Assembly: GCF_036588685.1 (NCBI RefSeq) | Contig: NC_086385.1 | Coordinates: 62,643,216 to 62,707,215 of the forward strand | Length of the DNA stretch: 64,000 nt | Reading direction: 5' to 3' | Source of the DNA: Mytilus trossulus | Taxonomy: Eukaryota | Shown here: piece by piece, positions 31,855-61,187 of the stretch | Position numbering within the stretch: the first letter of the stretch is position 1 | Layout of the letters: each line of letters starts with the position of its first letter | The notes under the pieces: model-generated | The model's database searches: none | Told to the model about the DNA's origin: nothing | Seen by the model: the letters and a program-made list of their open reading frames with translations, nothing else | Translations under genes and position numbers: made by a program

Positions 31855-34791
31855 GTAAGTACTTAGTTGTTTATCAATAATTTTATATGAAAAAGTAAAA
31901 AATGGCAAAATGATGAATTTATAATATTACAAGGGAATTGTTTTTAAATGGGTGAGAATTTGATACTTGATGTGCTTGTTGACCATAAATATTTACTGTT
32001 TATGTTTACATATTACGTGTTACATGACTGACTGACTGTCTTTTGTTTGATGAAATATTATCATGGAAACATCTAGGGGATCTAGCACGGTGGTACACAA
32101 ATTATAGACGGTAAATGCATGTTTCAGTACAATGCTCATTTGTTTTCTTTATCCTCGATGGATCACACATAATACCCCCCCCCCCCCCCAAAAAAAAACA
32201 ACCAAAAAAAAAACCAACAAACAAACAAAACACAAAACACAAACACAAAAAAAAAACCACAACACAACACAACAAAAAAAACTTGCAAAATAAGACTGTG
32301 AATTACTTAGATTTAGATATAGGAAGATGTGGTGTGATTGCCAATGAGATAACTCTCCATCCAAATATTAAACAATTTAAAAAAAAGTAAACCATTATAG
32401 GTCTGAGTTCAAATACTGTCTTAATCATTGTTCACTCAAATGATGATTTTTTTACTTTCAATGCTAAATTTATTGTTACTGGCAGACTTTTTCAAAGTAT
32501 AAGATAACATATTAAGATTGAAAACTTTAAAAAAAAAAAACACGAAAAAAATCAGATTGGTGACGGTGAGGACTTGAATTTTGAAACTGATAAGATATAT
32601 GTGTCCTCCATTTGTGACACCTCCTTTAGTTTAATTTGATTTTTAAGTTTACATAATATTATACATTCTTGAGTCTTTGAAATAAAGAGAACTGAAAAAT
32701 ATTTCTTATTTTATTAATGTTTTGTTGCACGTAAAACACACCCATAACAGAGTATCTAACATTATTTATAATGTATTTAATTTAATAAATGTCAGACTAG
32801 ACTGAACACTCACGTACATGTATTTAACGTGACATAACCTATTTGTACTTCAGTAGAGTTGAATGTTCTCATTTTAACTCTAAATAAATCGAAATAACAA
32901 ATCATGGAATGTTAAAACAACATTATACATGTATTTAACCTAAAGCAATATGACAGTCATTTGTTACGTAACCTTATCATATATGACATATTTGTAACCA
33001 AACCATGGGATTTATACAATTTTGGTAAAATGTGTGTGGGAAGGGGCGTTCACGTTCAGTTTAACCTATTAGAATATTAAATGGGGTCTGAGAAGGGTTG
33101 TAAGAAAAGAGAATAATGGCCCTAAAAAAATTTGACGAAAGGGCTAAAACTAAAGAAATCCTGAGAATGACTGGGTTTTTAAATATATAGAAATTTATTA
33201 TAAGAGAATTAAAGCCCCCACCCAAGATCAAAAGTCATGAAAAATATTGAATCCATTAAATAAAGACTCCGGCCAGGTAAAAACTCTTTAAAACAGACCC
33301 TTGATTCGTGATAAATATTTAGAGATAAAATAATTCAAAAACAGAGTACCTGTCAACAAAGGAGATTACACAGAGAATTTCAATGGATAATGCATGTCAG
33401 AACTTATATTGTTTTTATGCAAATACTGGCTCATTTTATTGTTTCTATTAAACAAGTAAAGGAGTAGGTTCGGTAATGGCCGATTTTGACCTCCAACTTC
33501 AGGTTCATCTGTCAGATGAAAGATTTTAGACACTTTTTAAACACTTAAGTGTCTACATCAGTCGATTCAATTATTGTATGTGTAGGATTTCATTTGAATT
33601 GATTTAGTCATTAAAAACGCTCAAATTCAAGCTTATTAATAAATATATGCAAAATTTAATCAAAAATGCAATTTAGGCCTCAAAGGAGTCTTTATTGGCC
33701 TATTCCTTTCTTTAATACTATTTCAAAAAGCCTTCAATCGGTACTTAAATTCAAAGCATCACAGTCCAATGACTTGAAGGTTCTAATAATATTGTGATTT
33801 ATTTCTAAACACACCAGCAAATTAGTACCCTTAACTGCAACTTTGACATATTTTGCCAAATTCACAGTACACTGTATGTATCTCTTAAACATGTTAAATG
33901 TACAAAACTGTACAATAAGAACAATCAGTAATCAAATTATACCTTCCAAGAGGTAAGGCCAATTTCCCCTGAAATAATTCCTATCTAATATAAAAAAGAA
34001 GATGTGGTATGATTGCCAATGAGACAACTATGCACACAAGACAAAAATGACACTGAAATTAACAACTATAGGTCACCGTACGGTCTTCAACAATGAGCAA
34101 AGCCCATACCGCATAGTCAGCTGTAAAAGGCACTGTAAAACAATTCAAACAAGAAAACTAGCGGCCTTATTTATGTAAAAAAAAATTAGGCATTTTTAAA
34201 AAGCGTTCCATTCAATCACCAAAATTCATAGTATCATATCCAAGTGTGTGCAATATTGTAACAATAGTATGGCTTATTTCTTAACAGATCAGCAAATTAT
34301 ATAAACGCCTGATAGGTCGAACCACAAATTAAACATATTTGTGCAATTTAGTACAGTCATATTAGTATTTTTCGACATATCTAATGTTCATTTTATTATA
34401 AATTCGTCCAACCTCTCTGTCGACCTTCCCATTATCTCTGTGTTTAAAAGGTAAATGTCATACAAATCTCTTTTGGTTTTGTCGACCTGTCCATTATTTT
34501 TGTGTAAATTCGTCATATAACACCTTTAATATAGTCAACCTTTGTTTTTTGTTAAGACCTTTCTATAAGCTCTGTGTTAATTAGCCATACCCTCTTTAAA
34601 TTTGTCTACCTTTCCTTAAGCTCCACTGTGTTAATTTTCCCTACCGGGACATCCGGGGCTTGATTGCTAAGGCGGTTTTATGTCACGGCTCCCACAAAAA
34701 GTATGATTTAATGTGTATCAGATGTGGTTTGATAACTAATTTTTGATCAGACGAAGTTGTAATAGAAGTTGGAAACTTTTACAGTCGTAAG

Positions 34792-36033
34792 ATGTCAAAT
34801 TCAGCAAATAATACAAATACTACAGTTGAAAATTCAGAGGTAAACCAAACCAATGACAAAAACAATATGGCGGACACCATCGAGACTTACTCTTCTATAT
34901 TGCAAAAACAAAACACAAAAAACAATTATGATGTTGAGGATGTAAAACCAGTTTTCATATTAGAAACTGACTTGTTTGGCAACACTAAACCAAGCAGAGA
35001 CCAGTTTCTAACACACATAGAACTGTACAAAACCATTGACGCTACAATATGCCCAGCCAGTCATCTCAAAGGGTTGCAGCGTGTTCGAGGTTTGTGGAGA
35101 ATCTATTTTGATTCTGATATCGATAGAGAATCCCTCATTACGTCTGGCATAACAATTCGGAATAAATATATCCAGGTTTACAGTAGAAACCCAAGGATAA
35201 TTGTTAATGAAAGACCAACTTACCTGAAAGTACGTGTAAAAAATGTGCCCTGTTCCGCTGAGGACGGACAGATTGAACGAAGCTTAGAATACCACGGATG
35301 CGAGGTTATTAAAATGTACAGAGAACGATTGCGAGTAGATGGCCTGTTATCAAATTGCCAAACTGGAGACAGAATCGCAATGGTAGCTCCTTTAAGTAAA
35401 GCTCTACCGAGATCTGTCCTTATTGGTAAATACAGAGCAACAGTTATTCACCAAGGACAAGAAAATCACAATCAAGCTGAAATCTCATGCAATAAATGCC
35501 TAAAGAAAGGTCACAAATTTTCGCAGTGTCCAAATGACTGGGTTTGTCTTCATTGTAAGAAACAAGGACACAGACAAGCAGAGTGTAATTCGCATCTAAG
35601 TGAAAGTGACGACACAGAAGACGACAATTCAGATGAGGATAAGTCAGAAACAGAAGACTTGGTGCAGACATCACAATCAATACTGCAACCAATCCCCAAT
35701 GACAGTCAAACAGTATCAGCTATAGCTCCACTCAGTAATGATCAAACAGACACTTCTACCAACAAAAGTGCAGACAACGACAATACATACATGAACAATC
35801 ATGACTCAGGATTGGAAGCTATAAACACCAACACTCCAATAGATGGTTCGCACAAAAAAAAGAAGAAAAAAAAACTGACTAATAATCAAAAGAAAACACT
35901 AGGAGATATAAGCCAATATTTCCAAGGAACGAACCAAACTCCAAGAAATAAAACCGATAAGAGAAACGCAACAACCCCAACAGAAGAGTATCAAGAACGT
36001 ACAGGTCCTGCACAAAAGACATTTAAACCGTAG
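34792..36033 (+). CDS. LINE ORF1 (gag-like, two CCHC zinc knuckles)
   Basis: RRM-like region (LQRVRGLWRIY, KVRVKNVP), CNKCLKKGHKFSQC and CLHCKKQGHRQAEC, then an acidic and a basic tail. Confidence 0.9.
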   Translation: MSNSANNTNTTVENSEVNQTNDKNNMADTIETYSSILQKQNTKNNYDVEDVKPVFILETDLFGNTKPSRDQFLTHIELYKTIDATICPASHLKGLQRVRGLWRIYFDSDIDRESLITSGITIRNKYIQVYSRNPRIIVNERPTYLKVRVKNVPCSAEDGQIERSLEYHGCEVIKMYRERLRVDGLLSNCQTGDRIAMVAPLSKALPRSVLIGKYRATVIHQGQENHNQAEISCNKCLKKGHKFSQCPNDWVCLHCKKQGHRQAECNSHLSESDDTEDDNSDEDKSETEDLVQTSQSILQPIPNDSQTVSAIAPLSNDQTDTSTNKSADNDNTYMNNHDSGLEAINTNTPIDGSHKKKKKKKLTNNQKKTLGDISQYFQGTNQTPRNKTDKRNATTPTEEYQERTGPAQKTFKP

Positions 36034-36152
36034 GGCCAATAAAACATGGCTACATGTAACCATCAAACAGAATTTAATAGATCAATTCAAACAAAAATGG
36101 CTAGCAAGCCTACAGGAATCACCAAAAGCATTAAATTATCGCTTATTTAAAG

Positions 36153-36630
36153 ATACTTTGGAGTTTGAAAAATATTTTAATATTTTGGATGATAGGCAAA
36201 TATCCTTATTTTTTAAATTTCGAACTTTGAACATGAAATTTCCAATAGAAACTGGAAGATGGCAAAAAATAGAAAGAGAAAACAGAAAATGTGTATTATG
36301 TAATTCAGATGCCATTGGTGATGAATACCATTACATTTTTAATTGTTCAGCTTTTGATAACTGTAGAAAACAATGTATTGCATTTTACTATAGAAATAGT
36401 CCAAATACATTGAAGTTTTATGACTTAATGAATTCAAAAAAATGTTCAGAACTGAACGAACTATGTAAACTTATTAAGGAGATCAATAACAAATTGAATT
36501 TTTCTGGGTGAACAATTGTGAATGCCTCTATCTACTTTCGTACATTATTTATTTATGTAATTTTGAAATATGTATAATTATCTCTATACCTTTGTAATTT
36601 GGTTTGTGAGAATAAAGATATATATATATA
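36153..36630 (+). mobile_element. 5'-truncated 3' end of a second LINE (CR1/L2-group-like) nested in the Tx1 spacer
   Basis: ORF remnant KFRT..FPIETGRW..RENRKCVLC..IGDEYHYIFNC, then AATAAA and a (TA)n tail. Possible TSD taaag. Confidence 0.75.
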
Positions 36631-36687
36631 TAAAGTACAATATGTAAATCCATTACAATGCAATTGTTAAATAATTAAAACACTACA

Positions 36688-37383
36688 ATGCTCAAATATA
36701 AATATATGTTCATAGAATTTATTATTTTTATTTTATTAATTAAAAAAAAACAAAAAAATGATTGTGATGCAATGCAAGATTGCATACTTTCAAAAGATTA
36801 TGACTATTTGAATGTCAAATATATGTTTATCATAAAAAACGTTTATGTTTCAAACAATCACCTGTTAGTATGGTACGCTATAAATAGAACATTAGAATTT
36901 GAATGTATCTTTGGTAAAAACCACATCATTGATATTGAAATTGCAAGAAATACACATATCTATATCCAACTTTTTTTTCTCCATGTGAAAAAAAATCCAT
37001 CAGTCATTTATGCCACGTTTATAATCCAGAGTGGTAATATTCTTCACACTTGTTTTCAATGTATAGAAAAGGAAAATCCAAATCTATTTTTAGAACATGA
37101 CACTAAATGTATAGCCATCCACGTTTTTTTAACATTCACAGGTAAATCCAATAATGATACATTTCTATTCTGGCTAATATTTGGAATATGGTATATCACA
37201 AAACCATCACTGAAATTGTTTAACTTTTCTTTTAATAACATCTGGTGTTCAGACATACCACTTCAATTTGCTAATCAGAATCTGGGTCAGTGTCTGAGTA
37301 ATGTCAAGGCCATATGCGGTCTGAAAATAGACAATGAAATAAAAGTAAACAATGTAGTTATCATACTAGAAATGTTAAAATGA
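36688..37383 (+). CDS. Unknown 231-aa hydrophobic ORF between LINE ORF1 and ORF2
   Basis: Long ATG-initiated ORF in very AT-rich DNA, with hydrophobic segments near aa 7-18 and ~158-170. No recognisable family. Confidence 0.45.
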   Translation: MLKYKYMFIEFIIFILLIKKKQKNDCDAMQDCILSKDYDYLNVKYMFIIKNVYVSNNHLLVWYAINRTLEFECIFGKNHIIDIEIARNTHIYIQLFFLHVKKNPSVIYATFIIQSGNILHTCFQCIEKENPNLFLEHDTKCIAIHVFLTFTGKSNNDTFLFWLIFGIWYITKPSLKLFNFSFNNIWCSDIPLQFANQNLGQCLSNVKAICGLKIDNEIKVNNVVIILEMLK

Positions 37384-37538
37384 TTATTTGCAATATTATT
37401 GTAAGCACTATTGGCAATGTTATGTACAATGTGTATATTAATATTAATACTAGCTGTATATACCATGTTGTAAACAAATTATGGTTATATTATATATAAG
37501 AAACTTTACTTTTTTTAACTAGAAATCTATGGTAAACA

Positions 37539-40500
37539 ATGAGTGAAAAAATACATATATGTTCATTAAACTGCCAAGGTCTTGGTTCAAAAGATAAAAG
37601 ACAAAGGCTTCATATGTGGATGAAGTATCAGAATTGTAATATTTTATTTGTACAAGAGAGTCATTTTACCTCTACTTTAGAGGAAAAATTTAAAAATGAA
37701 TTCAAAGGTGATACATACCACAGTTATGGAAATTCTCAATCAAGAGGGGTATCTATTTTTATAAGTGATCACACTGATTATCAATTAATTGATAAATTTC
37801 AAGATGAGGAGGGGCGCATAATTTTGATTAACATAGAAATTTCAGAAAGTATATATACTCTAGTTAATATTTATGCACCAAATCTACCTAAAAATAGGAA
37901 TGTTTTCTTCAAAAAAGTAAATGACATGATACAGAAAAACAGTTTAGGTATGGTCATAGTAGGGGGAGATATGAATGATACATTATCTAATATTGACAAC
38001 AAAAAAAACAACAGAAATAATAAAAGAAAACAAAAACCAGTCAACAGTTTAAAGGGGTTAATCAAAACACACAAACTGATAGATATTTGGAGAGACATAC
38101 ATAGAAATAATATACAATTTACATGGAGACGGAAAAATAAGATAAACGAAGCTTCACGCATAGACTACTTTCTTGTTTGTCCAGAAATAAGGTCACATAT
38201 TTATTCAACAGATATAAGACCTGCACTTATTTCACATACAGATCACCAAGCTATATCTTTAAAGGTAAAAGGGAGATCACAATCAAAAGGGAAAGGTTAT
38301 TTTAAAATTAATAACAGTATCTTAGATAATACAGAGTATAAAAATATAATAAAAGGTCTTATCATGAAATATAAAAATAAAACAAAACTTACTGATAAAA
38401 TAGGCCATCAATGGGATCTGTTCAAAATTGAAGTTCGAGAATATACTGTTGCATACTGTAAAAGAAATGCAAATAAAAATAAAAGTGAAATACATATATT
38501 GGAAAATAAGATAAAAAAATTAAATGAAAATATAAACAGAAACTGTAAAGATGATGTTATTAAACATTATCAAGAAGAATTAACTTATAATGAATGTAAA
38601 CTAAGAAAAATTTATGAAATAAAAAGTAAAGGAGCTCAAATAAGGTCAAGGATTAAATGGGTAGAAGAAGGAGAGAAAAATACTAAATTTTTTTTGGGAC
38701 TAGAAAAAGCTAGACAGACCAGAAAGACTATAACTGCTTTAAAAGATGAAAAAGGAGATATACATACAGAGTCTTCTAAAATTTTACAAATAGAAAAAGA
38801 ATTCTATCAAAATATTTATAATAGCACATGTCCAAATGTAAAATCCATAGATAAATATATTAATGATATAAATATTGATCATAAATTAAATAAACAAGAG
38901 AGTGAGATAATGGAAGGTACGTTAACCATTGAAGAATGTACTAGTTCGTTATTCAAGATGAAACTTAATAAATCACCTGGAATTGATGGACTTAGTGTTG
39001 AGTTCTATAGGACTTTTTGGAATGATTTAAAAGAATTTGCTGTATCTACATTTAATTATTCATATAAAAAAGGGGAGTTAACAAGTTCTCAAAAACTAGG
39101 AGTTATTTCTCTAATACATAAAAAGAATGATCCACTTTGCTTAAATAATTATAGACCCATAACTTTATTAAATATTGATACAAAATTAATTGCATATTCA
39201 TTGGCTCAACGCATTAAAAATATACTTCCAAATATTATACATAAGGATCAAAATGGTTATGTTAAAAATAGATATATAGGTTATAATATTAGACAAATCC
39301 AAGATATAATTGATTATGCAGAAAGATTTAACATAGAGGGGGCACTACTTTTTTTAGATTTCTCTAAAGCATTTGACTCTCTAGAATGGGATTTTATGTT
39401 TTCAGCTTTAAAAAAATTTGGATTCCAAAACTCTATGCTTAAATGGATTAAAACTTTATATACAGATATAAAAAGCTCAGTAATAAATAATGGATGGATA
39501 TCTGAACCCATAAACATTCAACGCGGTATACGACAAGGGTGTCCGTGCAGTGCATTAATTTTTGTTATTGCAGTAGAGATATTAGCCTGTAACATAAGGC
39601 AAGACCATAACATTAAAGGCTTTGAAATTAAGATAGATGGGAAAACACATTCATTAAAAGTCAGCCAACTTGCAGACGATACAACACTTTTTCTAAAATC
39701 ACAAAAAGACATTTCAAAAGTTTTAAATATGATTGAAATCTTTGGCACATTATCAGGACTTAAATTAAACAGATCAAAAACAGAAGGCATATGGTTAGGA
39801 AAACACAAACATTGTAAAGAAAAATATGAAAACATTAACTTTACAAACAAACCAGTAAAATGTTTAGGAGTTTTTTTTGGTTGTAATAAAAATGATTGTC
39901 AAAAGCTCAATGCTGAAAAACAATTAGAAAAATCTGAGAAGATAATTAAAAACTGGGAGAAAAGAAATCTAACCTTATTGGGAAAAATAACAGTTATTAA
40001 ATCACTGATTCTACCCAATATTACTTTTTTAGCATCTGTTTCTCACATAGAAAAAGAATATATTGATAAATTTAAAAAAATTGTATTTCAATTCTTATGG
40101 AAAAGCAAAACAGAAAAAGTTAAACGTAATGTATTAAGCTATGAATTGCTAGATGGTGGTTTAAAAATGATTGACATAGATAAATACATAGAATCTCTAA
40201 AAATTGGGTGGATTAAAAGATTAATATATGGAGATTTTGCCAACTGGAAAGTAATACCATTATTTTATTTTAATAAATTTGGCAAGAATTTCCTTATTTT
40301 TCATATGAACATTGATGGTATTAACTCAATTCCTGGTTTAAATAAGCTGCCAGAATTTTATTTGAATATATTAAAAGCATGGGTAAAAAACAAAAAAATA
40401 GAGCAACCAGAAAACTTTAAAACTATTCGACAACAAGTAATCTGGGGAAATCAATTCATCAAGATTAAAAAAAAAAGCCTTATATTTCAAAACTGGATAA

Positions 40501-41354
40501 ATAGCAAAATCATATATGTAAATGACATTATAGATGAAAATGGTAACATATCAGAGAAATATATTTTACAAAAACTCAATATAAAATGTAATTGGTTGTC
40601 AGAATTTTCTCAATTGAAGAAAGCTTTACCAAAAGAATGGATAAACATTTTAAGACAAGAAAATTCAAAGAAAACTCAAGTAAAAACAGATTATGTTTTA
40701 TTTATTAAGAGAAATTGTAATTATACAGAAACATTAGACAAGTTAGAAACAAAAAAAATTTATAACACATTCATTCAGAATGAGATTCAAATTCCTGTTG
40801 GTTTTAACCGATGGAAAACAGTGTTAAATATTGAGTATATTAAGAGTTCAGTCTGTAATATATTGAAATTTGTTCACCATTATTTGAAAGAAAATAAGTA
40901 TAAAGTGTTTCGTTGGAAATTGTTACACTTTATTCTACCTTGTAAAACTTTATTAAAACAGTGGAATATCTGCAATACTTCAAATTGTAATTTTTGCAAT
41001 ACCACTGAAGATTATGATCACATGTTTCTGAAATGTCATTTTCTTGATGACTTCTTTAGTAAAATTAAAAATCTTTTTGGAAAACTGAATATTGATAATA
41101 ATATTCTAACATTGAAAAATCTAGTATTTGGTTATAAAATTAATGATGAACAATATTATGAAATAAATTATTTGATTACATTAATAATGTTTTGTATATA
41201 TAAAGCTTACTACATGTCTGAACAGAAAACAGAAGCTATAAATGTTTATGCTGTATTTAAAGCAGAATTTATGTATAGTTACAAATTACAGGCAAAATGT
41301 AAGACTACACATTGTAATTGTTTCCTAGAAAAAGCTTTCAAATTGTTGAAATAA
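37539..41354 (+). CDS. LINE ORF2: APE endonuclease, reverse transcriptase, C-terminal Cys motif (intact, 1271 aa)
   Basis: SLNCQGL, VQESH, NIYAPN, GGDMN, SRIDYFL, TDH; KSPGIDG, YRPITLL, LDFSKAFD, GIRQGCP, LADD; CNFC..EDYDHMFLKC. Confidence 0.97.
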   Translation: MSEKIHICSLNCQGLGSKDKRQRLHMWMKYQNCNILFVQESHFTSTLEEKFKNEFKGDTYHSYGNSQSRGVSIFISDHTDYQLIDKFQDEEGRIILINIEISESIYTLVNIYAPNLPKNRNVFFKKVNDMIQKNSLGMVIVGGDMNDTLSNIDNKKNNRNNKRKQKPVNSLKGLIKTHKLIDIWRDIHRNNIQFTWRRKNKINEASRIDYFLVCPEIRSHIYSTDIRPALISHTDHQAISLKVKGRSQSKGKGYFKINNSILDNTEYKNIIKGLIMKYKNKTKLTDKIGHQWDLFKIEVREYTVAYCKRNANKNKSEIHILENKIKKLNENINRNCKDDVIKHYQEELTYNECKLRKIYEIKSKGAQIRSRIKWVEEGEKNTKFFLGLEKARQTRKTITALKDEKGDIHTESSKILQIEKEFYQNIYNSTCPNVKSIDKYINDINIDHKLNKQESEIMEGTLTIEECTSSLFKMKLNKSPGIDGLSVEFYRTFWNDLKEFAVSTFNYSYKKGELTSSQKLGVISLIHKKNDPLCLNNYRPITLLNIDTKLIAYSLAQRIKNILPNIIHKDQNGYVKNRYIGYNIRQIQDIIDYAERFNIEGALLFLDFSKAFDSLEWDFMFSALKKFGFQNSMLKWIKTLYTDIKSSVINNGWISEPINIQRGIRQGCPCSALIFVIAVEILACNIRQDHNIKGFEIKIDGKTHSLKVSQLADDTTLFLKSQKDISKVLNMIEIFGTLSGLKLNRSKTEGIWLGKHKHCKEKYENINFTNKPVKCLGVFFGCNKNDCQKLNAEKQLEKSEKIIKNWEKRNLTLLGKITVIKSLILPNITFLASVSHIEKEYIDKFKKIVFQFLWKSKTEKVKRNVLSYELLDGGLKMIDIDKYIESLKIGWIKRLIYGDFANWKVIPLFYFNKFGKNFLIFHMNIDGINSIPGLNKLPEFYLNILKAWVKNKKIEQPENFKTIRQQVIWGNQFIKIKKKSLIFQNWINSKIIYVNDIIDENGNISEKYILQKLNIKCNWLSEFSQLKKALPKEWINILRQENSKKTQVKTDYVLFIKRNCNYTETLDKLETKKIYNTFIQNEIQIPVGFNRWKTVLNIEYIKSSVCNILKFVHHYLKENKYKVFRWKLLHFILPCKTLLKQWNICNTSNCNFCNTTEDYDHMFLKCHFLDDFFSKIKNLFGKLNIDNNILTLKNLVFGYKINDEQYYEINYLITLIMFCIYKAYYMSEQKTEAINVYAVFKAEFMYSYKLQAKCKTTHCNCFLEKAFKLLK

Positions 41355-42821
41355 TTTTTTGTTTGTTTGAGAAATATATGATCTAGCAAAAATAAATGAA
41401 AGAACTTAATTAAAGATATAAATTTTTAAAATTACGCATCAGGAACTGATGAAGTAATATAAATTTTACTGTTCACCGCCACATGTTAAGATTAATATCG
41501 AGGCTATTTATATCAATTTACCGTTACAAAAAGAAGATTTGAAAAAGAAACCAGTCTTACTCTTGATCTTCTTTACACTATTGATAAATTTTGATTTAGA
41601 CATACCTGTTATAATGCTATATCACATCTGTTTGTTCTATTTTTAAAGCCGCATAAACCGGTGTGACAATTTTGTTTCAAACCAGGAAGTTATTCGATAG
41701 AAAAACAATGCACACGTTAACGGAGAAAATATGGAAAGTTTCCGGAAACTATACTCAAAAATCATTTATATTGCTAGATGATATCCAAATAGTATTTTTT
41801 CCTATTTATATGTATAGGTAAACAAATAAATCTCGCTGATATTTACTTGTTTATTATTTCATTGCTGATTATTTTATAACTTAGCTGTTAGATTATAATA
41901 CTAATGTTGATTTAATATATTGATGCTTACCAGAAAACAACCCTGGATTTCTGGTATTAACAAACAGGGACTCTTCACTGGTATGCTGGACTGGTGAGGT
42001 ACATTGTTAACAGCAGAAAGTGCAATTTGTTGTTGAATAAAAATTAAAAAAAAAATTTTCCCTACCGCCTTTAAATTTGCCGTCTGACCTGTGTTGATTG
42101 CCTCCTTCTTTTTTTTATATTAAGTCTTTTCATAAGCTTGGTCAATATTTCACAAAAGTTATCATTTTTTTTTGAAAAATTTCTAAGCAGATAAAATTTG
42201 TTTTGCTTAAATTTGAACAACATTGTTTCATTACGATTGTCTCTTCCTTGATATACTTTTGATATCTTACAAAATGTAGAAGTATCTAAATAAAGTGTCG
42301 CAGCCCCTTACTGTGCTTTGATGACTGTACTTTACACAAACAATGGCGTTAAATTGAAAGACGGACAACTGTAATGAACTTTAAAGTGAGATAAAACATT
42401 TAACACCAAGATCAAAGAAGCTAGGTTGGACTTTTGATTTTGCCTTTTGATTTTTGATTTTCCTTTTTGAATTTACCTCGGAGTTCAGTATTTTTGTGTT
42501 TTTACTTTTTTTTTTTTGACAGATCCTATAGTGAAGAAGAGAGCATCAAATACAGAGCTCCTCCTTTAATCTTTGTGCAAAACAGAACACATTATGTATA
42601 AAAAGTTATTGTTAATAATGCATACGTGAAATGTGAATTTAACCACGTTCCCTTGAATTTTAGCGATATATATATATATATATATATATGAAATTTGTTT
42701 TTTTCTTTTTTCACTAAAATTCAAGCGACTGTGATTAACTTGACTTTTTCTGTTCGTTTGTATTTTCTCCGTCGAAATTTTTAGACGCTTATTTATAACC
42801 CCTTATTTACCTTTTTTTAAG

Positions 42822-44055
42822 GATAGAAAACTTCAAGAAACAGGGGACCAGGATATTTAAAGTTGGTATCACAGATGACTCCAGTATACATTTATTGAAT
42901 AGGTTATACTGTGTAGTATTCCTCATCATTCTAGCCATGCTGGTCAGTAGTAAACAATACGTCGGAAATCCTATACAATGTTGGTGTCCAGCCATGTTTA
43001 CGGGTGCGCATGTCAAATACACCAATAACTATTGCTGGGTGTCAAACACGTATTACGTAGACTTTGAGAGTAGTCTTCCGCTTGAAAAAGAAATCCGAGT
43101 TAATAAAGAGATTGAGTACTATCAGTGGGTACCCTTAATCCTAGTCTTCCAAGCGCTTTTATTCTATCTGCCAAGAATGTTTTGGAAGAGATTTGGAGGT
43201 TATACGTTATTGAATATTAAGAAGATGTTAAATATGGCCGCCAGTGCTGGATATCTGACAGGAGAAGAAAGAGACAAAGCATTGGACGACATTGTGGCCT
43301 ATCTTCACAAGTATATAAAGATCAGAAATACCATTTCATCGCCACATCATAAAATGGAAATTGCAAAAGAAAAAATGTCGCGACTTGGACTTCACTATGG
43401 TAACTACCTGGTATTTTTGTTTATGGTGACGTCATTCTTATACATAATGACGGCCGCAGTCCAGATTATAGTGGTGGATATATTTCTTGGAAACGATTTT
43501 AAAAATCTTGGATTTGAATTTTTATCGATGATTTTCAAGGGACAGAAATTTGAAGACTACGGCCGTTTTCCACGTGTTACTTTCTGTGATTTAGATGTTC
43601 GACAGATGACCAATGTCCAGACGTGGACAGTACAATGCTCCCTACCAATCAATCTCTTTAACGAGAAACTTTTCTTTTGTAACTGGTTGATGTTAGTCTC
43701 CATGGTCATTATAAATTCAGTAAATTTTTTGTACAATCTAATTTCCATATTTTTACCTTACCGGACTGATAATTACGTCACTAAGTTCATGGAAATGGAA
43801 GGCGTCCGCGCTGGTCGAATTAATGAGAAACAATCACCACGCTATGGAGAAGTTAAGAAAGAGTTTGTGCGGGAATATCTTCGCCATGATGGTGTGTTTC
43901 TTATTTGGTTTCTTAGCAACAAGACAAATCAAGTTATAGCATCAGAAATTGTCAGCAAACTTTGGCAGCGTTATACAAAGGAAGGACTTGTTGAGGCCAA
44001 GCTTCACGCCGATGATGACGAATATCTGAGTCCTACTGCTGCTTCAAATGCATGA
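42822..44055 (+). CDS. Innexin (gap junction protein), main coding exon
   Basis: QYVGNPIQCW, NNYCW, YYQWVP, FPRVTFCD and QCSLPINLFNEKLF motifs, four hydrophobic segments, acceptor cctttttttaag ending at 42821. Confidence 0.95.
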
Positions 44056-49789: not shown

Positions 49790-52700
49790 TGACAATTGTG
49801 TTAGTTGAGTGCTGACTACAAGGGTGTAAGTAATGTGCTGATTATAATTGTGTTAGTTAAGTGCTGATTACAAGTGTGATAGTTGAGTGCCGATTACAAT
49901 TGTGTTAGTCAAGTGCTGATAACAAGTGTGACAGTTGAGTGCCGACTACAATTGTGTTAGTTAAGTGCTGATTACAAGTGTGACATTTGAGTGCCGATAA
50001 CAAGTATGTTAGTTAAGTGCTGATTACAAGTGTGTTAGTTAAGAGCTAATTACAAGTGTGTTAGTTAAGTGCTGATTACAAGTGTGTTAGTTCAGTGCTG
50101 ATAACCAGTGTGATAGTTGAGTGCCGATTACAAGTAGAAATGTTAAGTGTTGATAACAAGTGTGTTTGTTAAGAGCTGAAAAAAGTGTGTTATTTAAGTG
50201 CTGAATATAAGTGTGCAAGTTAAGTGCTGATTACAAGTGTGTTAGTTAAGACCAGATAACAAGAGTGGTAGTTAAGTGCTGATAACAAGTGTGTTCGTTA
50301 TGCACTGATTACAAGTGTGTAACTGAAGTGCCGATTACAATTGTGTTATTTGAGTACCGATTACAAGTGTGTTAGTTAAGTGCTGATCAAAATGTGTTAG
50401 TTGAGTTGTGATTACAAGTGTGTTAGTTGAAATGTGATTACAAGTGTGTTAGTTGAGTACTTATAACAAGTGCACAGGCTAAGTTTAGTTTAAACATATT
50501 TATTTTTAGTGGATTGGGAAGCAAGTTTTGCAACTTATATAAATCCCTTTCCACTTTGCGGGTGCGAGTGCTGCCTTGTAGCGGCATTAGCATTATGTGC
50601 CGATTACAAGTGTGTTAGTGTGTTAGTTAAATGCTGATGACAAGTGTGTAAGTAAAGTGCTGATTACAAGTGTGTTAGTGTGTAAGTTAAGTGCTGATGA
50701 CAAGTGTGTAAATAAAGGACTGATGACAAGTTTTGTTAGCCAAGTGCTGATTACAAGTGTGTTGGTTTAGTGCTGATGACAAATTTGTTAGTGAAGTGCT
50801 GATGACAAGTTTGATAGTTAATTGCTGATGACAAGTTTGCTTGTTAAGTACATGTTTGTTGTGTGTCGATTACAAATGTGTAAGTGTGTAAGTTAATTGC
50901 TGATGACAAGTTTGTTAGTTAGGTGCATGTTTGTTATGTGCCGATTACAAGTGTGTTAGTGTGTTAGTTAAGTGCTGATGACAAGTGTGTAAGTAAAGTG
51001 CTGATTACAAGTGTGTTAGTTAAGTGCTGATGACAAGTCTGTTAGTTAAGTGCTGATGACAAGTGTGTAAATAAAGGACTGATGACACGTTTGTTAGCCA
51101 AGTGCTGATTACAAGTGTGTTGGTTTAGTGCTGATGACAAGTTTGTTAGTTAAGTGCTGATGACAATAAAAAAAGAAGATGTGGTATGATTGCCAATGAG
51201 ACAACTATCCACAAAAGACCAAAATGACACAAACATTAACAATTATAGGTCACCGTACGGCCTTCGACAATGAGCAAAGCTCCTGACTTGGGACAGGCAC
51301 ATATATAAATAATGTGGCGGGGTTAAACATGTTAGCGGGATCCTAACCCGCCCCTAACCTGGCGAAGTGGTATAACAGTACAATATAAGAGCGAACTATA
51401 AGAATCAGTTGAAAAATGCTTAACTCATCAGATAGACAAAATACAAGTGACGTGGCCGGGTACTTATACATCCCGACACAAAAAATCACAATGAACAGAT
51501 CTGAGAGCACTCGCAGTTATCTGACAGCTAGTTCAAAGCCATTAACAACTAATAAAAAAATCATGCCTCTAAGACTAAGCAATCAATCCGTACACATCCA
51601 ACATACAACGGATTTAGTGTAAAGACGTCATAAACAGCCAGAGAAAAACATGACCTTTTGCAATGCCAAGTTACAGGTATCGACAGTTTGTAGATCCATG
51701 AAAATGTATATGTTGTTAGTGATGAGCATGTTTGTTGTGTGCCGATTACAAGTGTGTTAGTGTGTTAGTTAAGTGATGATTGCAAGTCTGTTAGTTAAGT
51801 GCTGATGACAAGTTTGTTAGTTAAGAGCATGTTTGTTATGTGCCGATTACAAGTGTGTTAGTGTGTTAGTTAAGTACTGATGACAAGTGTGTAAATAAAG
51901 GGCTGATGACAAGTTTGTTAGCCAAGTGCTGATTACAAGTGTGTGTTGGTTTAGTGCTGATGACAAGTTTGTTAGTGAAGTGCTGATGACAAGTTTGTTA
52001 GTTAAGAGCATGTTTGTTATGTGCAGATTACAAGTGTATTAGTGTGTAAGTTAAGTGCTGATGACATGTGTGTTAGTTTACTGCTGATTACAAGTGTGTT
52101 AGTTAAGTGATGATTAAAAGTGTGTAAGTTAAGTGCTGATGACAAGTTTGTTAGTTAAGTGCGATGACAAGTTTGATAGTTAACTGCTGATGACAAGTTT
52201 GTTAGTTAAGTACATGTTTGTTGTTTGCCGATTACAAATGTGTAAGTGTGTTAGTTAAGTGCTGATGACAAGTGTGGAAGTAAAGTGCTTATGACAAGTG
52301 TGTTAGTTAAGTGCTGATTACAAGTGTGTTAGTTAAGAGCTAATTACAAGTGTGTTAGTTAAGTGCTGATTGCAAGTGTGTTAGTTCAGTGCTGATAACC
52401 AGTGTGATAGTTGAGTGCCGATTACAAGTAGAAATGTTAAGTGTTGAAAAAGTGTGTTTGTTAAGAGCTGAAAAAAGTGTGTTATTTAAGTGCTGATTGC
52501 AAGTGTGTTAGTTCAGTGCTGATAACCAGTGTGATAGTTGAGTGCCGATTACAAGTAGAAATGTTAAGTGTTGATAACAAGTGTGTTTGTTAAGAGCTGA
52601 AAAAAGTGTGTTATTTAAGTGCTGAATATAAGTGTGCAAGTTAAGTGCTGATTACAAGTGTGTTAGTTAAGACCAGATAACAAGAGTGGTAGTTAAGTGC

Positions 52701-54810
52701 TGATAACAAGTGTGTTCGTTATGCACTGATTACAAGTGTGTAACTGAAGTGCCGATTACAATTGTGTTATTTGAGTACCGATTACAAGTGTGTTAGTTAA
52801 GTGCTGATCAAAATGTGTTAGTTGAGTTGTGATTACAAGTGTGTTAGTTGAAATGTGATTACAAGTGTGTTAGTTGAGTACTTATAACAAGTGCACAGGC
52901 TAAGTTTAGTTTAAACATATTTATTTTTAGTGGATTGGGAAGCAAGTTTTGCAACTTATATAAATCCCTTTCCACTTTGCGGGTGCGAGTGCTGCCTTGT
53001 AGCGGCATTAGCATTATGTGCCGATTACAAGTGTGTTAGTGTGTTAGTTAAATGCTGATGACAAGTGTGTAAGTAAAGTGCTGATTACAAGTGTGTTAGT
53101 GTGTAAGTTAAGTGCTGATGACAAGTGTGTAAATAAAGGACTGATGACAAGTTTTGTTAGCCAAGTGCTGATTACAAGTGTGTTGGTTTAGTGCTGATGA
53201 CAAATTTGTTAGTGAAGTGCTGATGACAAGTTTGATAGTTAATTGCTGATGACAAGTTTGCTTGTTAAGTACATGTTTGTTGTGTGTCGATTACAAATGT
53301 GTAAGTGTGTAAGTTAATTGCTGATGACAAGTTTGTTAGTTAGGTGCATGTTTGTTATGTGCCGATTACAAGTGTGTTAGTGTGTTAGTTAAGTGCTGAT
53401 GACAAGTGTGTAAGTAAAGTGCTGATTACAAGTGTGTTAGTTAAGTGCTGATGACAAGTCTGTTAGTTAAGTGCTGATGACAAGTGTGTAAATAAAGGAC
53501 TGATGACACGTTTGTTAGCCAAGTGCTGATTACAAGTGTGTTGGTTTAGTGCTGATGACAAGTTTGTTAGTTAAGTGCTGATGACAATAAAAAAAGAAGA
53601 TGTGGTATGATTGCCAATGAGACAACTATCCACAAAAGACCAAAATGACACAAACATTAACAATTATAGGTCACCGTACGGCCTTCGACAATGAGCAAAG
53701 CTCCTGACTTGGGACAGGCACATACATAAATAATGTGGCGGGGTTAAACATGTTAGCGGGATCCTAACCCGCCCCTTACCTGGCGAAGTGGTATAACAGT
53801 ACAATATAAGAGCGAACTATAAGAATCAGTTGAAAAATGCTTAACTCATCAGATAGACAAAATACAAGTGACGTGGCCGGGTACTTATACATCCCGACAC
53901 AAAAAATCACAATGAACAGATCTGAGAGCACTCGCAGTTATCTGACAGCTAGTTCAAAGCCATTAACAACTAATAAAAAAATCATGCCTCTAAGACTAAG
54001 CAATCAATCCGTACACATCCAACATAAAACGGATTTAGTGTAAAGACGTCATAAACAGCCAGAGAAAAACATGACCTTTTGCAATGCCAAGTTACAGGTA
54101 TCGACAGTTTGTAGATCCATGAAAATGTATATGTTGTTAGTGATGAGCATGTTTGTTGTGTGCCGATTACAAGTGTGTTAGTGTGTTAGTTAAGTGATGA
54201 TTGCAAGTCTGTTAGTTAAGTGCTGATGACAAGTTTGTTAGTTAAGAGCATGTTTGTTATGTGCCGATTACAAGTGTGTTAGTGTGTTAGTTAAGTACTG
54301 ATGACAAGTGTGTAAATAAAGGGCTGATGACAAGTTTGTTAGCCAAGTGCTGATTACAAGTGTGTGTTGGTTTAGTGCTGATGACAAGTTTGTTAGTGAA
54401 GTGCTGATGACAAGTTTGTTAGTTAAGAGCATGTTTGTTATGTGCAGATTACAAGTGTATTAGTGTGTAAGTTAAGTGCTGATGACATGTGTGTTAGTTT
54501 ACTGCTGATTACAAGTGTGTTAGTTAAGTGATGATTAAAAGTGTGTAAGTTAAGTGCTGATGACAAGTTTGTTAGTTAAGTGCGATGACAAGTTTGCTAG
54601 TTAACTGCTGATAACAAGTTTGTTAGTTAAGTACATGTTTGTTGTTTGCCGATTACAAATGTGTAAGTGTGTTAGTTAAGTGCTGATGACAAGTGTGGAA
54701 GTAAAGTGCTTATGACAAGTGTGTTAGTTAAGTGCTGATTACAAGTGTGTTAGTTAAGTGCTGATTAAAAGTGTGTTTGTTAAGTGCTGATGACTAGTTT
54801 GTAAGTTAAG
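49790..54810. repeat. ~26-bp satellite (gttagttaagtgctgat[t/g]acaagtgt) with interspersed-repeat insertions and an internal ~2.4-kb duplication
   Basis: Degenerate tandem units. Block ~50020-52315 is repeated at 52316-54740 (offset 2421 for most of its length). Confidence 0.9.
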
Positions 54811-57800
54811 TAGATATAGGAAGATGTGGTATGAGTGCCAATGAGACAACTCTCCATCCAAATAACAATTTAAAAATTAAACCATTATAGGTTAAAGTAC
54901 GGCCTTCAACACGGAGCCTTGGCTCACACCGAACAACAAGCTATAAAGGGACCCAAACTTACTAGTGTAAAACCATTCAAATGGGAAAACCAACGGTCTA
55001 ATCTATATAAACAAAACGAGAAACGAGAAACACGTATATATTACATAAACAAACGACAACTATAATCTATAATGTATGATAGACATTTATTTACTCGGCA
55101 TCAATTGTGAATTGATGCCATGAGAATTAGTGACGTTGTCCAATTAAAATGAACGTTATAAACAACGTTGCACTATAATGTATACTAAGTAGACATTTTA
55201 CTTATTGTCTCTATGGTGCTTTTAAAAGACACAGTTGCTTGCCAGTATATATTGTTAGAAGTTTTTTTTATTGGTTGACACACACTTATATAGGTCAAGA
55301 GGCAGATTTAGGGGGTGACAGGGGACTCACTCGGGCTACTCTTTTGAGGGAAAAATAGGGAATCACTGAATCATGACTGGAGCGGCCCCCCTCTTTTAAC
55401 ATTTTTTGGATCCGCCACTGAGGTCGGGAAATATCCATATAGATTTTGGTTGCAATACAGACATTTTGGAAATTATAAGGCTAAAACTTTCATTGGCATT
55501 TTATATTTGATCTGGTCTAATTATATTTTTTTACACCGTCCAAATCATCCCGTGCAGATAATTGCTTTACCGAAAGGTCTAAATGAACATTTTTTACTGT
55601 TTGTATGTACATGTATTGTTATACATCAAAATATATCTTATAATTAGTTAGTTAGCAAATTGTTTTATATAGATTGGCCTTGATGACATATTTTCTTTAA
55701 AAAAATTAAAAGGTGCTAATAATATTTTGCTTTGTTTTTTAAGACCAGCCTCATTTTGTTTTTACTTTTTTGAAAGAGAAAGTCATGTTATGCATTGTCA
55801 TTGGAATAACAATTGAAATCCTTTATTTCGTGTGATCATATTTTCGACAAAGGGGGGTCCTTTTTCATATCTGTCATTTTTCCTTTTAAAAAGTTCTCTA
55901 TCTTTTATAGTTTTTTGTCAGCACCCTGTTATTTTCTATTCTTTACATTTTAGCACCCCATTGTTCTATTTCATTTTTTAGCACCACATTTTTCTTTATT
56001 CTTTTTTTTGGTCTGTTTTTCTTTATAGTTTAATTTTTAAAATATTTGTCTCCATTATTTATCTGTTTAGTCTATTTTTTTGTAATACTTAGTCCATTAT
56101 TGTCTACCCAGATCATTATTATAACATAAAATGTTATCTTTCATCAGTAGGATTTGTGAGACGCTAATGTAACTAAAGTATTCAATCTACATATAAAAAA
56201 AAAGAAGATGTGGTACGATTGCCCATGAGATAACTGTCCACAAGAGACCAACATGACACAGACATTAACAACTATAGGTTACCGTACGGCTTTAACAATG
56301 AGCAAACTCTATACCGTATATTTATATATAGTACCGCATAGTCAGCTATATAAAGGCCGCGATATGACAATGTTAAACAATTCAAACAAGAAAACTAACA
56401 GCCTTATTTATATAAAAAAAAATGAACGAAAACCAAATATTTACATGTCTATTTGTTAGTCCTTCTCTATACATTTTTGTGGTCAGTATATATACAGCCA
56501 ATCACTTAGGAAATAACAACATACAATTTGGTTAATTTCACCAACCATTATTTAAGGTAATCCTAAAGCAAAAACAAAAACCTATTCCGGATATTTCACT
56601 AGTGCAGTTCTCAATGTAAGCGCTCACGCTGTTCAGTTTTACAATAAAAGGAGATTTTGTATGATTGCATAAATATTGTTTAAGACAATAATATAAGAGT
56701 CCAAATGACCAAAATGACATGGCTTTGAGTTACTATAATAGATCACAGTACTACCTTCATTAATGAGCAAAATCCCGATGATTCTGCATTTTACAGTCAT
56801 AAAAGGACCCAAAAGCTACATTTTTTGGTATTTTGGTTATAACATGACATGCTGAATTTTTCTGTTTTTTTCTGAGAAGACTGTAGTGTTTTTAAACTAT
56901 ATGCAACAGACCTGTTTCGTCTGTTCATTTTTTGTAGTGCAAAGCGCTTCAAACATGTTATCATTTTTTTAGTGCGAGAATTCCGTAACTTATTTAATCC
57001 TAGTGTTTAGTGCAGGGCATTCATTACGTATATATATATTTATATTATACTTATTATTGAATATAATTTTAATGCAGGGCATTCATATATTTAAATTTCT
57101 ACCAGAAACTGATGAAGAGAATGATACATAGTGAAGCTAAAAACCTTTGGAGAAATAAATATTTTTACTGTTTCAGAATTCTTGTTTTATTTATTCATTT
57201 ATAATGAGACCCGAGAGATACGAAGGTGTTCATGTATATTTAAGCGTAGTAAGGTTCCTAATGTTTTCAAGTTTGATTTATTAACAGTATAAGGATTTGT
57301 TTCATTTCTTTTTGAAATTATCTGTTTAGATGAAACCAAAGTGACACGAAGATCTGGTTACAGTTTTACATTTCACGTTTGGGGTCCCCATTGTTTCTGA
57401 GAACGACTATAGAAGGAATGAATATTTTAGATGTTTCTGACTTACTTATTTTCTTATTTCAAATAGACATTTATGAGACCTTATGAAGCGAATATCTGGT
57501 TGCAGTGTTGTTAGTTTCGCGAAGGGACTTCCAGGGGCGGATCCAGCAACAAAAAAAGGAGGAGGGGATTTTAACCATATGTTCCCATTTAAATGCATTG
57601 TCTGTTAACAAAAAGGGAGTGTTAAAGCCCCGAAACAGCTCTATCGCAGATACTGACAACTATATAAGTTAAATGGAATCCTTGAATATGGCGTACATGT
57701 CCGTATGTCCGTTTTCTTCTGACCTTGACCTCATTGTCGTGGTTCTTTGGACACATTTAAGATTATGTGAATTGGTCTATTTCTCCGATATTATAAGCAA

Positions 57801-58364
57801 TAGGTCAGCTATATTTGGTGTATGCAATGAATATAAGGTGTACATATAAACTAGAGGATGCAGTATGTTTACCAATGAGGAAACTCTCCATCCAAGTTAT
57901 AGTGAATATAAAGTTAACAATTATTAGTCCAAGTGTGGCCTTCAACACGGAGCGTTGGTTATCACCGAACAACAAGCTTTAAAGCGACCCAAAATGACAA
58001 GTATAAACCAAAAAAAAAAAAACACGGTCCAATCCATATATAAGAACGAGAAACATTTAATATTGTTGAACTACACTAACAAACGAAATTGACTGTACAG
58101 CATACTCCTGACTTATGACAGGTAACGTTTTAACAAGCGTCAGCCTTCACCCTAACTTAAGACAGAAGTGAACATTATAACACAAGGAAAACCTCTAAAA
58201 TATAATTTGGAATGGCTGACTCGATCAAAAAGACATTTAAACAAAAATAAGTGAACATAAACTGAACCCATAAGATTGGTCTATGATAAAAAAAAAATGT
58301 TGGAACAAATGTATTGACAACTCTAACCTGAGACATAGGGCGTTAAAACCCCAACGTGCATACA

Positions 58365-60596
58365 TATATTGACCTTTCACTCATTCTAATGGTTAATTGG
58401 TATATTGACCTTTCAGTCATTCTCATGTTTAATTGGTATATTGACCTTTCACTCATTCTAATGGTTAATTGGTGTATTGACCTTTCACTCATTCTAATGG
58501 TTAATTGGTATATTGACCTTTCACTCATTCTAATGGTTAATTTGTATATTGACCTTTCACTCATTCTAATGGTTAATTGGTATATTGACCTTTCACTCAT
58601 TCTCATGGTTAATTGGTATATTGACCTTTCACTCATTCTCATGGTTAATTGGTATATTGACCTTTCACTCATTCTATTGGTTAATTGGTATATTGACCTT
58701 TCACTCATTCTCATGGTTAATTGGTATATTGACCTTTCACTCATTCTCATGGTTAATTGGTATATTGACCTTTCACTCATTCTCATGGTTAATTGGTATA
58801 TTGACCTTTCACTCATTCTCATGGTTAATTGGTATATTGACCTTTCACTCATTCTCATGGTTAATTGGTATATTGACCTTTCACTCATTCTAATGGTTAA
58901 TTGGTATATTGACCTTTCACTCATTCTAATGGTTAATTGGTATATTGACCTTTCAGTCATTCTAATGGTTAATTGGTATATTGACCTTTCACTCATTCTC
59001 ATGGTTAATTGGTATATTGACCTTTCACTCAGTCTCATGGTTAATTGGTATATTGACCTTTCACTCAGTCTCATGGTTAATTGGTATATTGACCTTTCAC
59101 TCAGTCTCATGGTTAATTGGTATATTGACCTTTCACTCAGTCTCATGGTTAATTGGTATATTGACCTTTCACTCAGTCTCATGGTTAATTGGTATATTGA
59201 CCTTTCACTCAGTCTCATGGTTAATTGGTATATTGACCTTTCACTCAGTCTCATGGTTAATTGGTATATTGACCTTTCACTCAGTCTCATGGTTAATTGG
59301 TATATTGACCTTTCACTCATTCTCATGGTTAATTGGTATATTGACCTTTCACTCAGTCTCATGGTTAATTGGTATATTGACCTTTCACTCATTCTCATGG
59401 TTAATTGGTATATTGACCTTTCACTCATTCTCATGGTTAATTGGTATATTGACCTTTCACTCATTCTCATGGTTAATTGGTATATTGACCTTTCACTCAT
59501 TCTCATGGTTAATTGGTATATTGACCTTTCACTCATTCTCAAGGTTAATTGGTATATTGACCTTTCACTCAGTCTCATGGTTAATTGGTATATTGACCTT
59601 TCACTCATTCTCATGGTTAATTGGTATATTGACCTTTCACTCATTCTCATGGTTAATTGGTATATTGACCTTTCACTCATTCTCATGGTTAATTGGTATA
59701 TTGACCTTTCACTCATTCTCATGGTTAATTGGTATATTGACCTTTCACTCATTCTCATGGTTAATTGGTATATTGACCTTTCACTCATTCTCAAGGTTAA
59801 TTGGTATATTGACCTTTCACTCATTCTCATGGTTAATTGGTATATTGACCTTTCACTCATTCTCATGGTTAATTGGTATATTGACCTTTCACTCATTCTC
59901 ATGGTTAATTGGTATATTGACCTTTCACTCATTCTCATGGTTAATTGGTATATTGACCTTTCACTCATTCTCATGGTTAATTGGTATATTGACCTTTCAC
60001 TCAGTCTCAAGGTTAATTGGTATATTGACCTTTCACTCAGTCTCATGGTTAATTGGTATATTGACCTTTCACTCATTCTCATGGTTAATTGGTATATTGA
60101 CCTTTCACTCATTCTCAAGGTTAATTGGTATATTGACCTTTCACTCAGTCTCATGGTTAATTGGTATATTGACCTTTCACTCAGTCTCATGGTTAATTGG
60201 TATATTGACCTTTCACTCATTCTCATGGTTAATTGGTATATTGACCTTTCACTCATTCTCATGGTTAATTGGTATATTGACCTTTCACTCATTCTCATGG
60301 TTAATTGGTATATTGACCTTTCACTCATTCTCATGGTTAATTGGTATATTGACCTTTCACTCAGTCTCAAGGTTAATTGGTATATTGACCTTTCACTCAG
60401 TCTCATGGTTAATTGGTATATTGACCTTTCACTCATTCTCATGGTTAATTGGTATATTGACCTTTCACTCATTCTCAAGGTTAATTGGTATATTGACCTT
60501 TCACTCAGTCTCATGGTTAATTGGTATATTGACCTTTCACTCATTCTCATGGTTAATTGGTATATTGACCTTTCACTCAGTCTCATGGTTAATTGG
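58365..60596. repeat. 36-bp minisatellite, 62 units
   Basis: Unit tatattgacctttcactcattctcatggttaattgg. 2232 bp = 62 x 36, with only substitution variants. Confidence 0.97.
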
Positions 60597-61187
60597 TCAA
60601 CAATAAGTTGTCATAATTTTGTTAATATTTTAGTTACTTTAAAGCAACAGGTCAAATATATTTGGTGTATTGAATGTTGTAAGATGAACATGTCTGTCTA
60701 GCAGGATTCTTTGATCTAACCTCCGTTTGATGTGTTTTGTCCTTTGATATTGCCATGTTATTAGGGACTTTCCGATTGAATTTTCCTCGGAGTTCAGTAT
60801 TTTTGTGGCTTTACATTTTTTCAGGTTTCATTGGTAAATGATAAGTTTTCACAATTTTGTTAGTATGACGTACACATAATCGGTGTATGGCATGATATGG
60901 TACAAAGTTGCACATTTCTAGATTTATCTGACAGGGATCTTTGACCCTGATCTTATTTCTATAGTTCACTGGTCAATATTTATATTTGAAGTTTATTCTG
61001 TTTCGCAAGTAATATTAATGATAGGATCACTATATTTTGTGTATGGAATGATTGTTAGTTGTGTATGTCTGTCTTCATGGTTCATCTTAGTACTGTAACC
61101 TCATTTACATAGAACATTGATAATGATAGGTTCTTTGATACTTGTAGCTTAACCTTCATATCACAGACGTTCAACATGAACTCAATG

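Follow-up and report, generated by a model that had tools for sequence, protein, structure and literature searches.

The locus

The window, i.e., the whole analysed stretch of 64,000 nucleotides of the Mytilus trossulus contig NC_086385.1, contains a young and intact non-LTR retrotransposon of the L1/Tx1 type with a third reading frame, here called ORF X, between its two standard ORFs. The following features were located:

34633..34646, + strand: left target-site duplication (TSD), 14 bp, same letters as 42054-42067
34647..42053, + strand: full-length L1/Tx1-type non-LTR retrotransposon, AATAAA followed by an A tail at its end, delimited by sister-copy alignments and the TSD
34792..36033, + strand: ORF1, 413 aa, with two CCHC knuckles, an acidic/basic tail and a conserved T-P-T motif near the C-terminus
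36039..36634, + strand: nested 596-bp insertion found in this copy only, the 3' end of another LINE, truncated on its 5' side and carrying a (TA)n tail
36046..36150, + strand: mini-ORF of 34 codons, an off-frame by-product within the insert and outside the L1 system
36688..37383, + strand: ORF X, 231 aa here and ~270 aa in sister copies, with an N-terminal hydrophobic segment, a lysine run and a C-D-x-x-x-D-x-I motif common to a subclade
37280..37315, no strand assigned: two putative nuclear-receptor-like half-sites in the spacer, from a motif match
37380..37499, + strand: remainder of the family's ORF X, 39 codons, its ATG overlapping the early stop of this copy (ATGA), joined to ORF X in sister copies
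37529..37546, + strand: mini-ORF of 5 codons, its stop overlapping the ORF2 start, equivalent to the final N-N-E-stop with which ORF X closes in neighbouring families
37539..41354, + strand: ORF2, 1271 aa, intact, with AP endonuclease, reverse transcriptase (RT) and zf-RVT
42054..42067, + strand: right TSD, copy of the left one

Pfam placed PF03372, PF00078 and PF13966 in ORF2, all over the cut-off, and the best PDB match of ORF2 was human LINE-1 ORF2p (E = 2.6e-100, versus 9e-19 for R2). Both CCHC knuckles of ORF1 were invariant among 12 aligned ORF1 sequences, and their profile matched nucleocapsid knuckles. The top homologue of ORF1, 99 % identical, was labelled Mytilus galloprovincialis, and the named relatives came from Mytilus species and Pinctada. 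In public Mytilus annotations many ORF1 proteins of this clade carry CNBP or host CCHC labels. The two-knuckle CCHC ORF1, the endonuclease-RT-zf-RVT order of ORF2, the short 5' UTR, the A tail and the 14-bp TSD are those of L1-Tx1 elements, which passages of PMC10294476 describe as widespread among molluscs. The element thus has the zinc-binding ORF2, CCHC ORF1, poly(A) tail and TSD of the L1 group, but departs from the rule of two ORFs only, with a third ORF in 16 families. This is a variant layout of the same enzyme class. The name "L1/Tx1-type" is used here for either the Tx1 or the L1 clade, the ORF2 tree being built from fetched loci only.

Elsewhere in the window, an intronless-looking innexin ORF of 418 codons lies ~750 bp downstream of the element (42799-44055, + strand; PF00876, E = 5.5e-85). 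A very homogeneous 36-bp tandem array (58365-60597, 62 copies, 97 % matches) is embedded in a larger 26-bp satellite region (49792-64000), and the segment 25029-28646 consists of 78-bp tandem arrays on either side of a 180-bp array.

ORF X in this copy

The initial annotation had noticed a stop-free run of 231 codons at 36688-37383 and considered it improbable by chance. The run is present, and the probability of its staying open by chance at its own base composition is 1.5e-9. As controls, none of 24 AT-rich 1-kb blocks of host DNA contained a six-frame ORF of at least 200 codons (maximum 155), and the longest ORF in element 3' UTRs had 77 codons (n = 13). An antisense ORF was considered as a cause; none longer than 68 aa exists here, and one antisense frame has fewer stops because the sense frame is open.

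The nested insertion had been given as 483 bp. Empty sites in four of four sister copies inspected set it at 596 bp (36039-36634). The frame 35912-36511, which encodes the C-terminus of a different LINE, gave a weak zf-RVT match (E = 0.54, Pfam); the 34-codon mini-ORF overlaps it in another frame and belongs to the insert, not to the L1. The same correction applies to the frame of ORF X, which had been described as that of ORF1 with or without the insert: the two are in frame solely through the insert, and at the empty site the ATG of ORF X is situated 58 nt past the ORF1 stop in frame +1. Because the insert parts ORF1 from ORF X, this copy may be disabled despite its three open frames. Other LINEs have repeatedly left truncated 3' ends, alike in their C-terminal coding frame, within or near these elements, often shortly past the ORF1 stop (window 36039-36634; spacers of L117 and L158; L013).

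The length of 231 aa is also private. A one-base indel near residue 220 separates this copy from its relatives: three of three close sisters and two of two database homologues run on past this residue in another frame and end at most ~40 nt before ORF2, so that the ORF X of the sisters is ~39 codons longer.

Distribution of ORF X across the clade

Relatives at 34-38 % identity were found by protein search of the genome. Families were gathered from the 150 best endonuclease matches in the genome, around which 80 further stretches were fetched. Sixteen divergent families each possessed a copy whose gap between ORF1 and ORF2 is filled by one ORF of 202-460 aa. In these representatives the frame of ORF X has 0 stops versus 18-57 in each other sense frame; the zero is a product of selecting intact copies, and the point is that intact copies exist in every branch. 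In a quick ORF2 tree of the fetched loci, no main branch was without one of these families, and their ORF2 identities to this element went down to 47 %. The third ORF proposed by the initial annotation is thus a fixed trait of the clade, far more general than assumed at the time, and the pattern named there as evidence against it, stops and frameshifts in sister families with ORF1 and ORF2 open, was not encountered across the families.

Single copies are often damaged. Among 60 copies with both the ORF1 end and the ORF2 start, one ORF covered at least 80 % of the gap in 33, and 27 were broken in ORF X by stops, frameshifts or nested inserts. We read the latter as probable damage after insertion. 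Three damaged copies of one family, L033, L034 and L036, all on one contig (C5), were ~80 % identical to the ORF X of L035; two had similar flanks, and the three are probably a segmental duplication.

Metagenome data provided 18 loci, six of them with enough spacer to test. L124 had ORF1, an ORF of 324 codons and an intact ORF2. In L134, ORFs of 162 and at least 363 codons were present at 37 % GC, and L133 had a 253-codon piece amid fragments. L130, L131 and L132 presented shorter pieces only (longest 77, 151 and 94 codons), one or two of their frames being poor in stops. A two-ORF sister group that would root the gain was not found; a genome search with a distant endonuclease gave largely the same clade.

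The clade-wide presence bears on a group of explanations. In these, ORF X would be an extension of ORF1, either read-through or decayed, or of the ORF2 N-terminus; it would be an intron; or it would have arisen by chance or capture in a single copy. In this copy ORF X does lie in frame with ORF1, which had suggested an extension to the initial annotation. Across 17 elements it is in frame with ORF1 in one and with ORF2 in two. These frame counts rule out an ORF1 read-through, and a splice fusion was rejected as well, since a conserved donor at the ORF1 stop was absent (none of 16 scoring at least 8 of 9). We regard this group of explanations as highly improbable. In RNA runs, 0.14-0.48 of the sampled words were found as contigs, a figure that says nothing on transcription, splicing or level.

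Selection on the frame and on the amino acids

A codon model on 3225 codons from 11 pairs of related copies yielded an omega of 0.9 for ORF X (grid interval 0.8-1.1), a pooled value near 1 that can mask conserved and positively selected sites together. The same model gave 0.8 and 1.1 for the off-frames of ORF X and 0.13 for ORF2. Per pair, NG86 ratios ranged from 0.37 to 2.1: two non-independent pairs had 1.8 and 2.1, and two close pairs ~0.4 with intervals below 1. Amino acid changes in ORF X were no more conservative than expected from the other frames (mean BLOSUM -0.31 versus -0.12 and -0.39 off-frame), and the base composition per codon position agrees to ~0.005 with that of random DNA from which stops are removed. 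Purifying selection, as expected for a conserved accessory or membrane protein, was thus not detected. Indels behaved differently from substitutions: 31 of 49 were multiples of 3 in ORF X versus 1 of 12 in the 3' UTRs (p = 8e-4), in a count that omits indels of at least 100 nt and three poorly aligning 3' UTR pairs and in which several partners are damaged copies. Judged from these comparisons of copies, the frame is under selection and the amino acids are largely free.

Positions of starts and stops

The distance from the ORF1 stop to the ORF X start was 19-118 nt. Relative to the ORF2 AUG, the ORF X stop was located between -39 and +38 nt in all 16 families from this genome, despite a 2.3-fold range in length, and at -90 in the metagenomic L124. 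It overlaps or passes the ORF2 AUG in 12 of the 16 families. Each spacer contains 18-41 AUGs. Only 6 of 17 elements have the AUG of ORF X as the first to follow the ORF1 stop; in the others it is preceded by short ORFs of 1-31 codons.

In L079/L138, L113 and L114 a common +1 frameshift splits ORF X into two overlapping ORFs, which still reach ORF2. The flanks of L113 and L114 differ, the three split copies resemble intact copies as much as they resemble one another, and the frameshift lies within an A run. An inherited and tolerated split is suggested, not proven. Runs of 7-14 A were observed in several families behind the hydrophobic segment, within the first 150 nt of ORF X, and are frequent frameshift sites among copies.

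Of a termination-reinitiation cassette, the upstream stop near the downstream AUG is present, but a tethering motif or structure was not found. UGGGA, the calicivirus-type motif, occurred in none of the 16 families, and nothing unusual was seen in the structure near the ORF2 start (mean folding z -0.06 and -0.19).

Protein-level features of ORF X

The hydrophobic run at the N-terminus followed by lysines, reported initially for this copy, was verified and has counterparts in the clade. In most of the 16 families the strongest 13-residue hydropathy peak fell within residues 1-52, with a combined p of 3e-9 against residue shuffles and of 8e-5 (calibration 0.18) against a null keeping the local base composition; the families share ancestry, and these combined values overstate the support. 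A net basic charge follows the segment in 13 of 16 families, and the C-D-x-x-x-D-x-I motif recurs in one subclade.

ORF X could encode a functional product that evolves fast and is anchored in a membrane. This could be an accessory protein with a role in trans, e.g., in countering host defence. It could also be a signal anchor that acts in cis while nascent, which would pull the element's own RNA to the endoplasmic reticulum (ER) and leave the remaining chain unconstrained. A precedent is the SRP-dependent ER targeting of Ty1 RNA (PMC3945221). Several results speak against such a product. In codons 2-26, T was counted 197 times at position 2 and 190 times at position 3; because T is equally raised at both positions, at least part and perhaps much of the hydrophobicity is plain T-richness. 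The omega of codons 1-50 was 0.8 (0.5-1.5). Beyond residue 55, windows resembling transmembrane (TM) segments were not enriched (27 versus 24 +/- 4). None of the 16 ORF X proteins, from this copy and 15 relatives, matched a Pfam family above the cut-off. A homologue search with ORF X retrieved two near-identical proteins only, and a profile of 10 N-termini gave four matches among 1.84 billion representatives, three of them of the same length as members of the input family. An AlphaFold model from an 8-row alignment had no confident fold, and its pLDDT of 33 is uninformative. Overall we consider a membrane-anchored product unlikely.

Other signs of a membrane protein listed in the initial annotation dissolved on comparison. 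The second hydrophobic stretch is below the 19-residue TM threshold, lacks conservation in the nearest family and has lost a part in P0003. N-x-S/T sequons numbered 69 versus 63 in shuffles, and Cys amounted to 4.5 % versus 3.8 % and 4.5 % in the two off-frames; both are background. The membrane-associated accessory protein had itself been made dependent on a dN/dS clearly different from 1, and with the observed 0.9 (0.8-1.1) the sole candidate for a feature at the protein level is the hydrophobic segment at the N-terminus.

Regulatory sequences in the spacer

Words resembling transcription factor sites exceeded the expectation of a second-order Markov model (AGGTCA 13 versus 3.6, GTAAACA 20 versus 7.7, CACGTG 7 versus 1.0), but three of the motifs were chosen after a k-mer scan, and ORF1 and host DNA have an equal density of AGGTCA per kb. 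Four spacers that otherwise do not align shared a nucleotide motif in which third positions are fixed. The assignment of such words and half-sites to named factors, e.g., of the nuclear-receptor type, is our presumption. A nucleotide motif with repeated TGACC/GGTCA half-sites was conserved ~260-410 nt before ORF2 in ORF X of L091, L094, L095 and L097 and in the spacer of L089, although these spacers do not align otherwise; it may represent sites for nuclear receptors or else form a small hairpin in the RNA.

These findings are consistent with a spacer that serves as cis-regulatory DNA or RNA and is kept translatable mainly against nonsense-mediated decay or for the clearing of bound factors. 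ORF2 would then be reached by an internal ribosome entry site (IRES) or from a shorter internal transcript with ORF X as upstream ORF. IRESs have been predicted for long vertebrate L1 spacers in passages of PMC5381506; in the mussel elements the folding upstream of ORF2 is ordinary. Protection from decay alone needs translation of ORF2 anyway, and a route to ORF2 is still required. We consider a primarily regulatory spacer improbable. Both this explanation and the membrane anchor are nevertheless live and may be combined with the one that follows.

Proposed translation of ORF X as a bridge to ORF2

With modest confidence, we favour the view that ORF X is a stop-free frame with neutral drift of its amino acids and likely a translated bridge that brings ribosomes to a restart at ORF2. 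Ribosomes that have finished ORF1 would cross the 19-118 nt gap and restart at the AUG of ORF X. Elongation would carry them through 0.6-1.4 kb, past 18-41 AUGs in which a scanning subunit would otherwise be caught. Termination at the ORF2 AUG, or a short way past it, would be followed by a new start at this AUG. As both restarts would be inefficient, ORF2p would also stay scarce. The selected thing, we infer, would be the act of translation, and termination-reinitiation at the ORF2 AUG would be its simplest route. The ORF X peptide would be mostly a by-product, although a role in cis is possible for the hydrophobic segment at its N-terminus. In favour of the bridge stand the selection on the frame, the neutral drift, the end of ORF X next to ORF2 and the common frameshift whose two ORFs still reach ORF2. 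Against it stand the missing tethering motif and structure, the small share of elements in which the AUG of ORF X comes first, the pooled omega that can mask selected sites, and the 27 broken copies.

Known systems provide parts of this mechanism. According to passages of PMC4072516, small spacer ORFs aid the retrotransposition of megabat L1, which decreased ~3.3-fold when all spacer AUGs were removed. Stop-start coupling in SART1 and reinitiation in LINE-1 are treated in passages of PMC5972666. A passage of PMC3894237, in contrast, argues that reinitiation following long ORFs is improbable; this doubt weighs against the bridge because it requires reinitiation twice. A pure bridge also fails to predict the N-terminal hydrophobic segment, or why the spacer was not just deleted. 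For the retention of the spacer, cis-regulatory DNA within it may be offered as a guess. As a tentative and rather doubtful extension, the elements may form a tricistronic LINE clade in which the middle ORF is selected only for being translated and its N-terminal anchor tethers its own RNA to the ER during the synthesis of ORF2p.

Comparison with other L1 elements

Active L1s have two ORFs and an intergenic region, as described in passages of PMC5203782, whereas in the mussel clade a third sense ORF fills the gap. The L1s of fish, frog, lizard, afrotherians and megabats resemble the mussel elements in an AT-rich, fast-diverging spacer of hundreds of bases to ~1 kb (passages of PMC5381506 and PMC4072516). 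By their description in the same passages, to which our comparison is confined, these vertebrate spacers differ in being regarded as non-coding sequence that holds small ORFs or predicted IRESs, and a continuous ORF under frame selection is not reported there. Primate ORF0 and mammalian antisense ORFs, in the relevant passages of PMC5203782, are also additional L1 ORFs but lie antisense; ORF0 comprises 71 aa and is located upstream of ORF1. The geometry, with an ORF1-ORF X gap of 19-118 nt and a stop/start overlap of ORF X and ORF2, resembles that of SART1 (UAAUG) and of human LINE-1 (63-nt spacer) in passages of PMC5972666. There the upstream ORF is a functional ORF1; in the mussel clade ORF X is unconstrained and the coupling would occur twice.

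In full-text searches of openly accessible articles, no report of a sense ORF filling an L1/Tx1 spacer was found. Passages of PMC7140322, PMC11203168 and PMC4494074 make no mention of a middle ORF.

The translation of ORF2 across a long LINE spacer is described as an open question in passages of PMC5381506 and PMC3894237. The mussel clade offers an evolutionary readout of this process, with frame and end-point selected and amino acids free, and makes the reinitiation model directly testable. An ORF with a chance probability below 1e-8 and a membrane-like look that is probably no conventional protein gene is of consequence for annotation and for the study of de novo genes. If the tricistronic reading with its RNA-tethering anchor is true, natural long ORFs are kept open without sequence constraint and could readily give rise to de novo membrane proteins, and long L1 spacers elsewhere that pass for "non-coding" may work alike.
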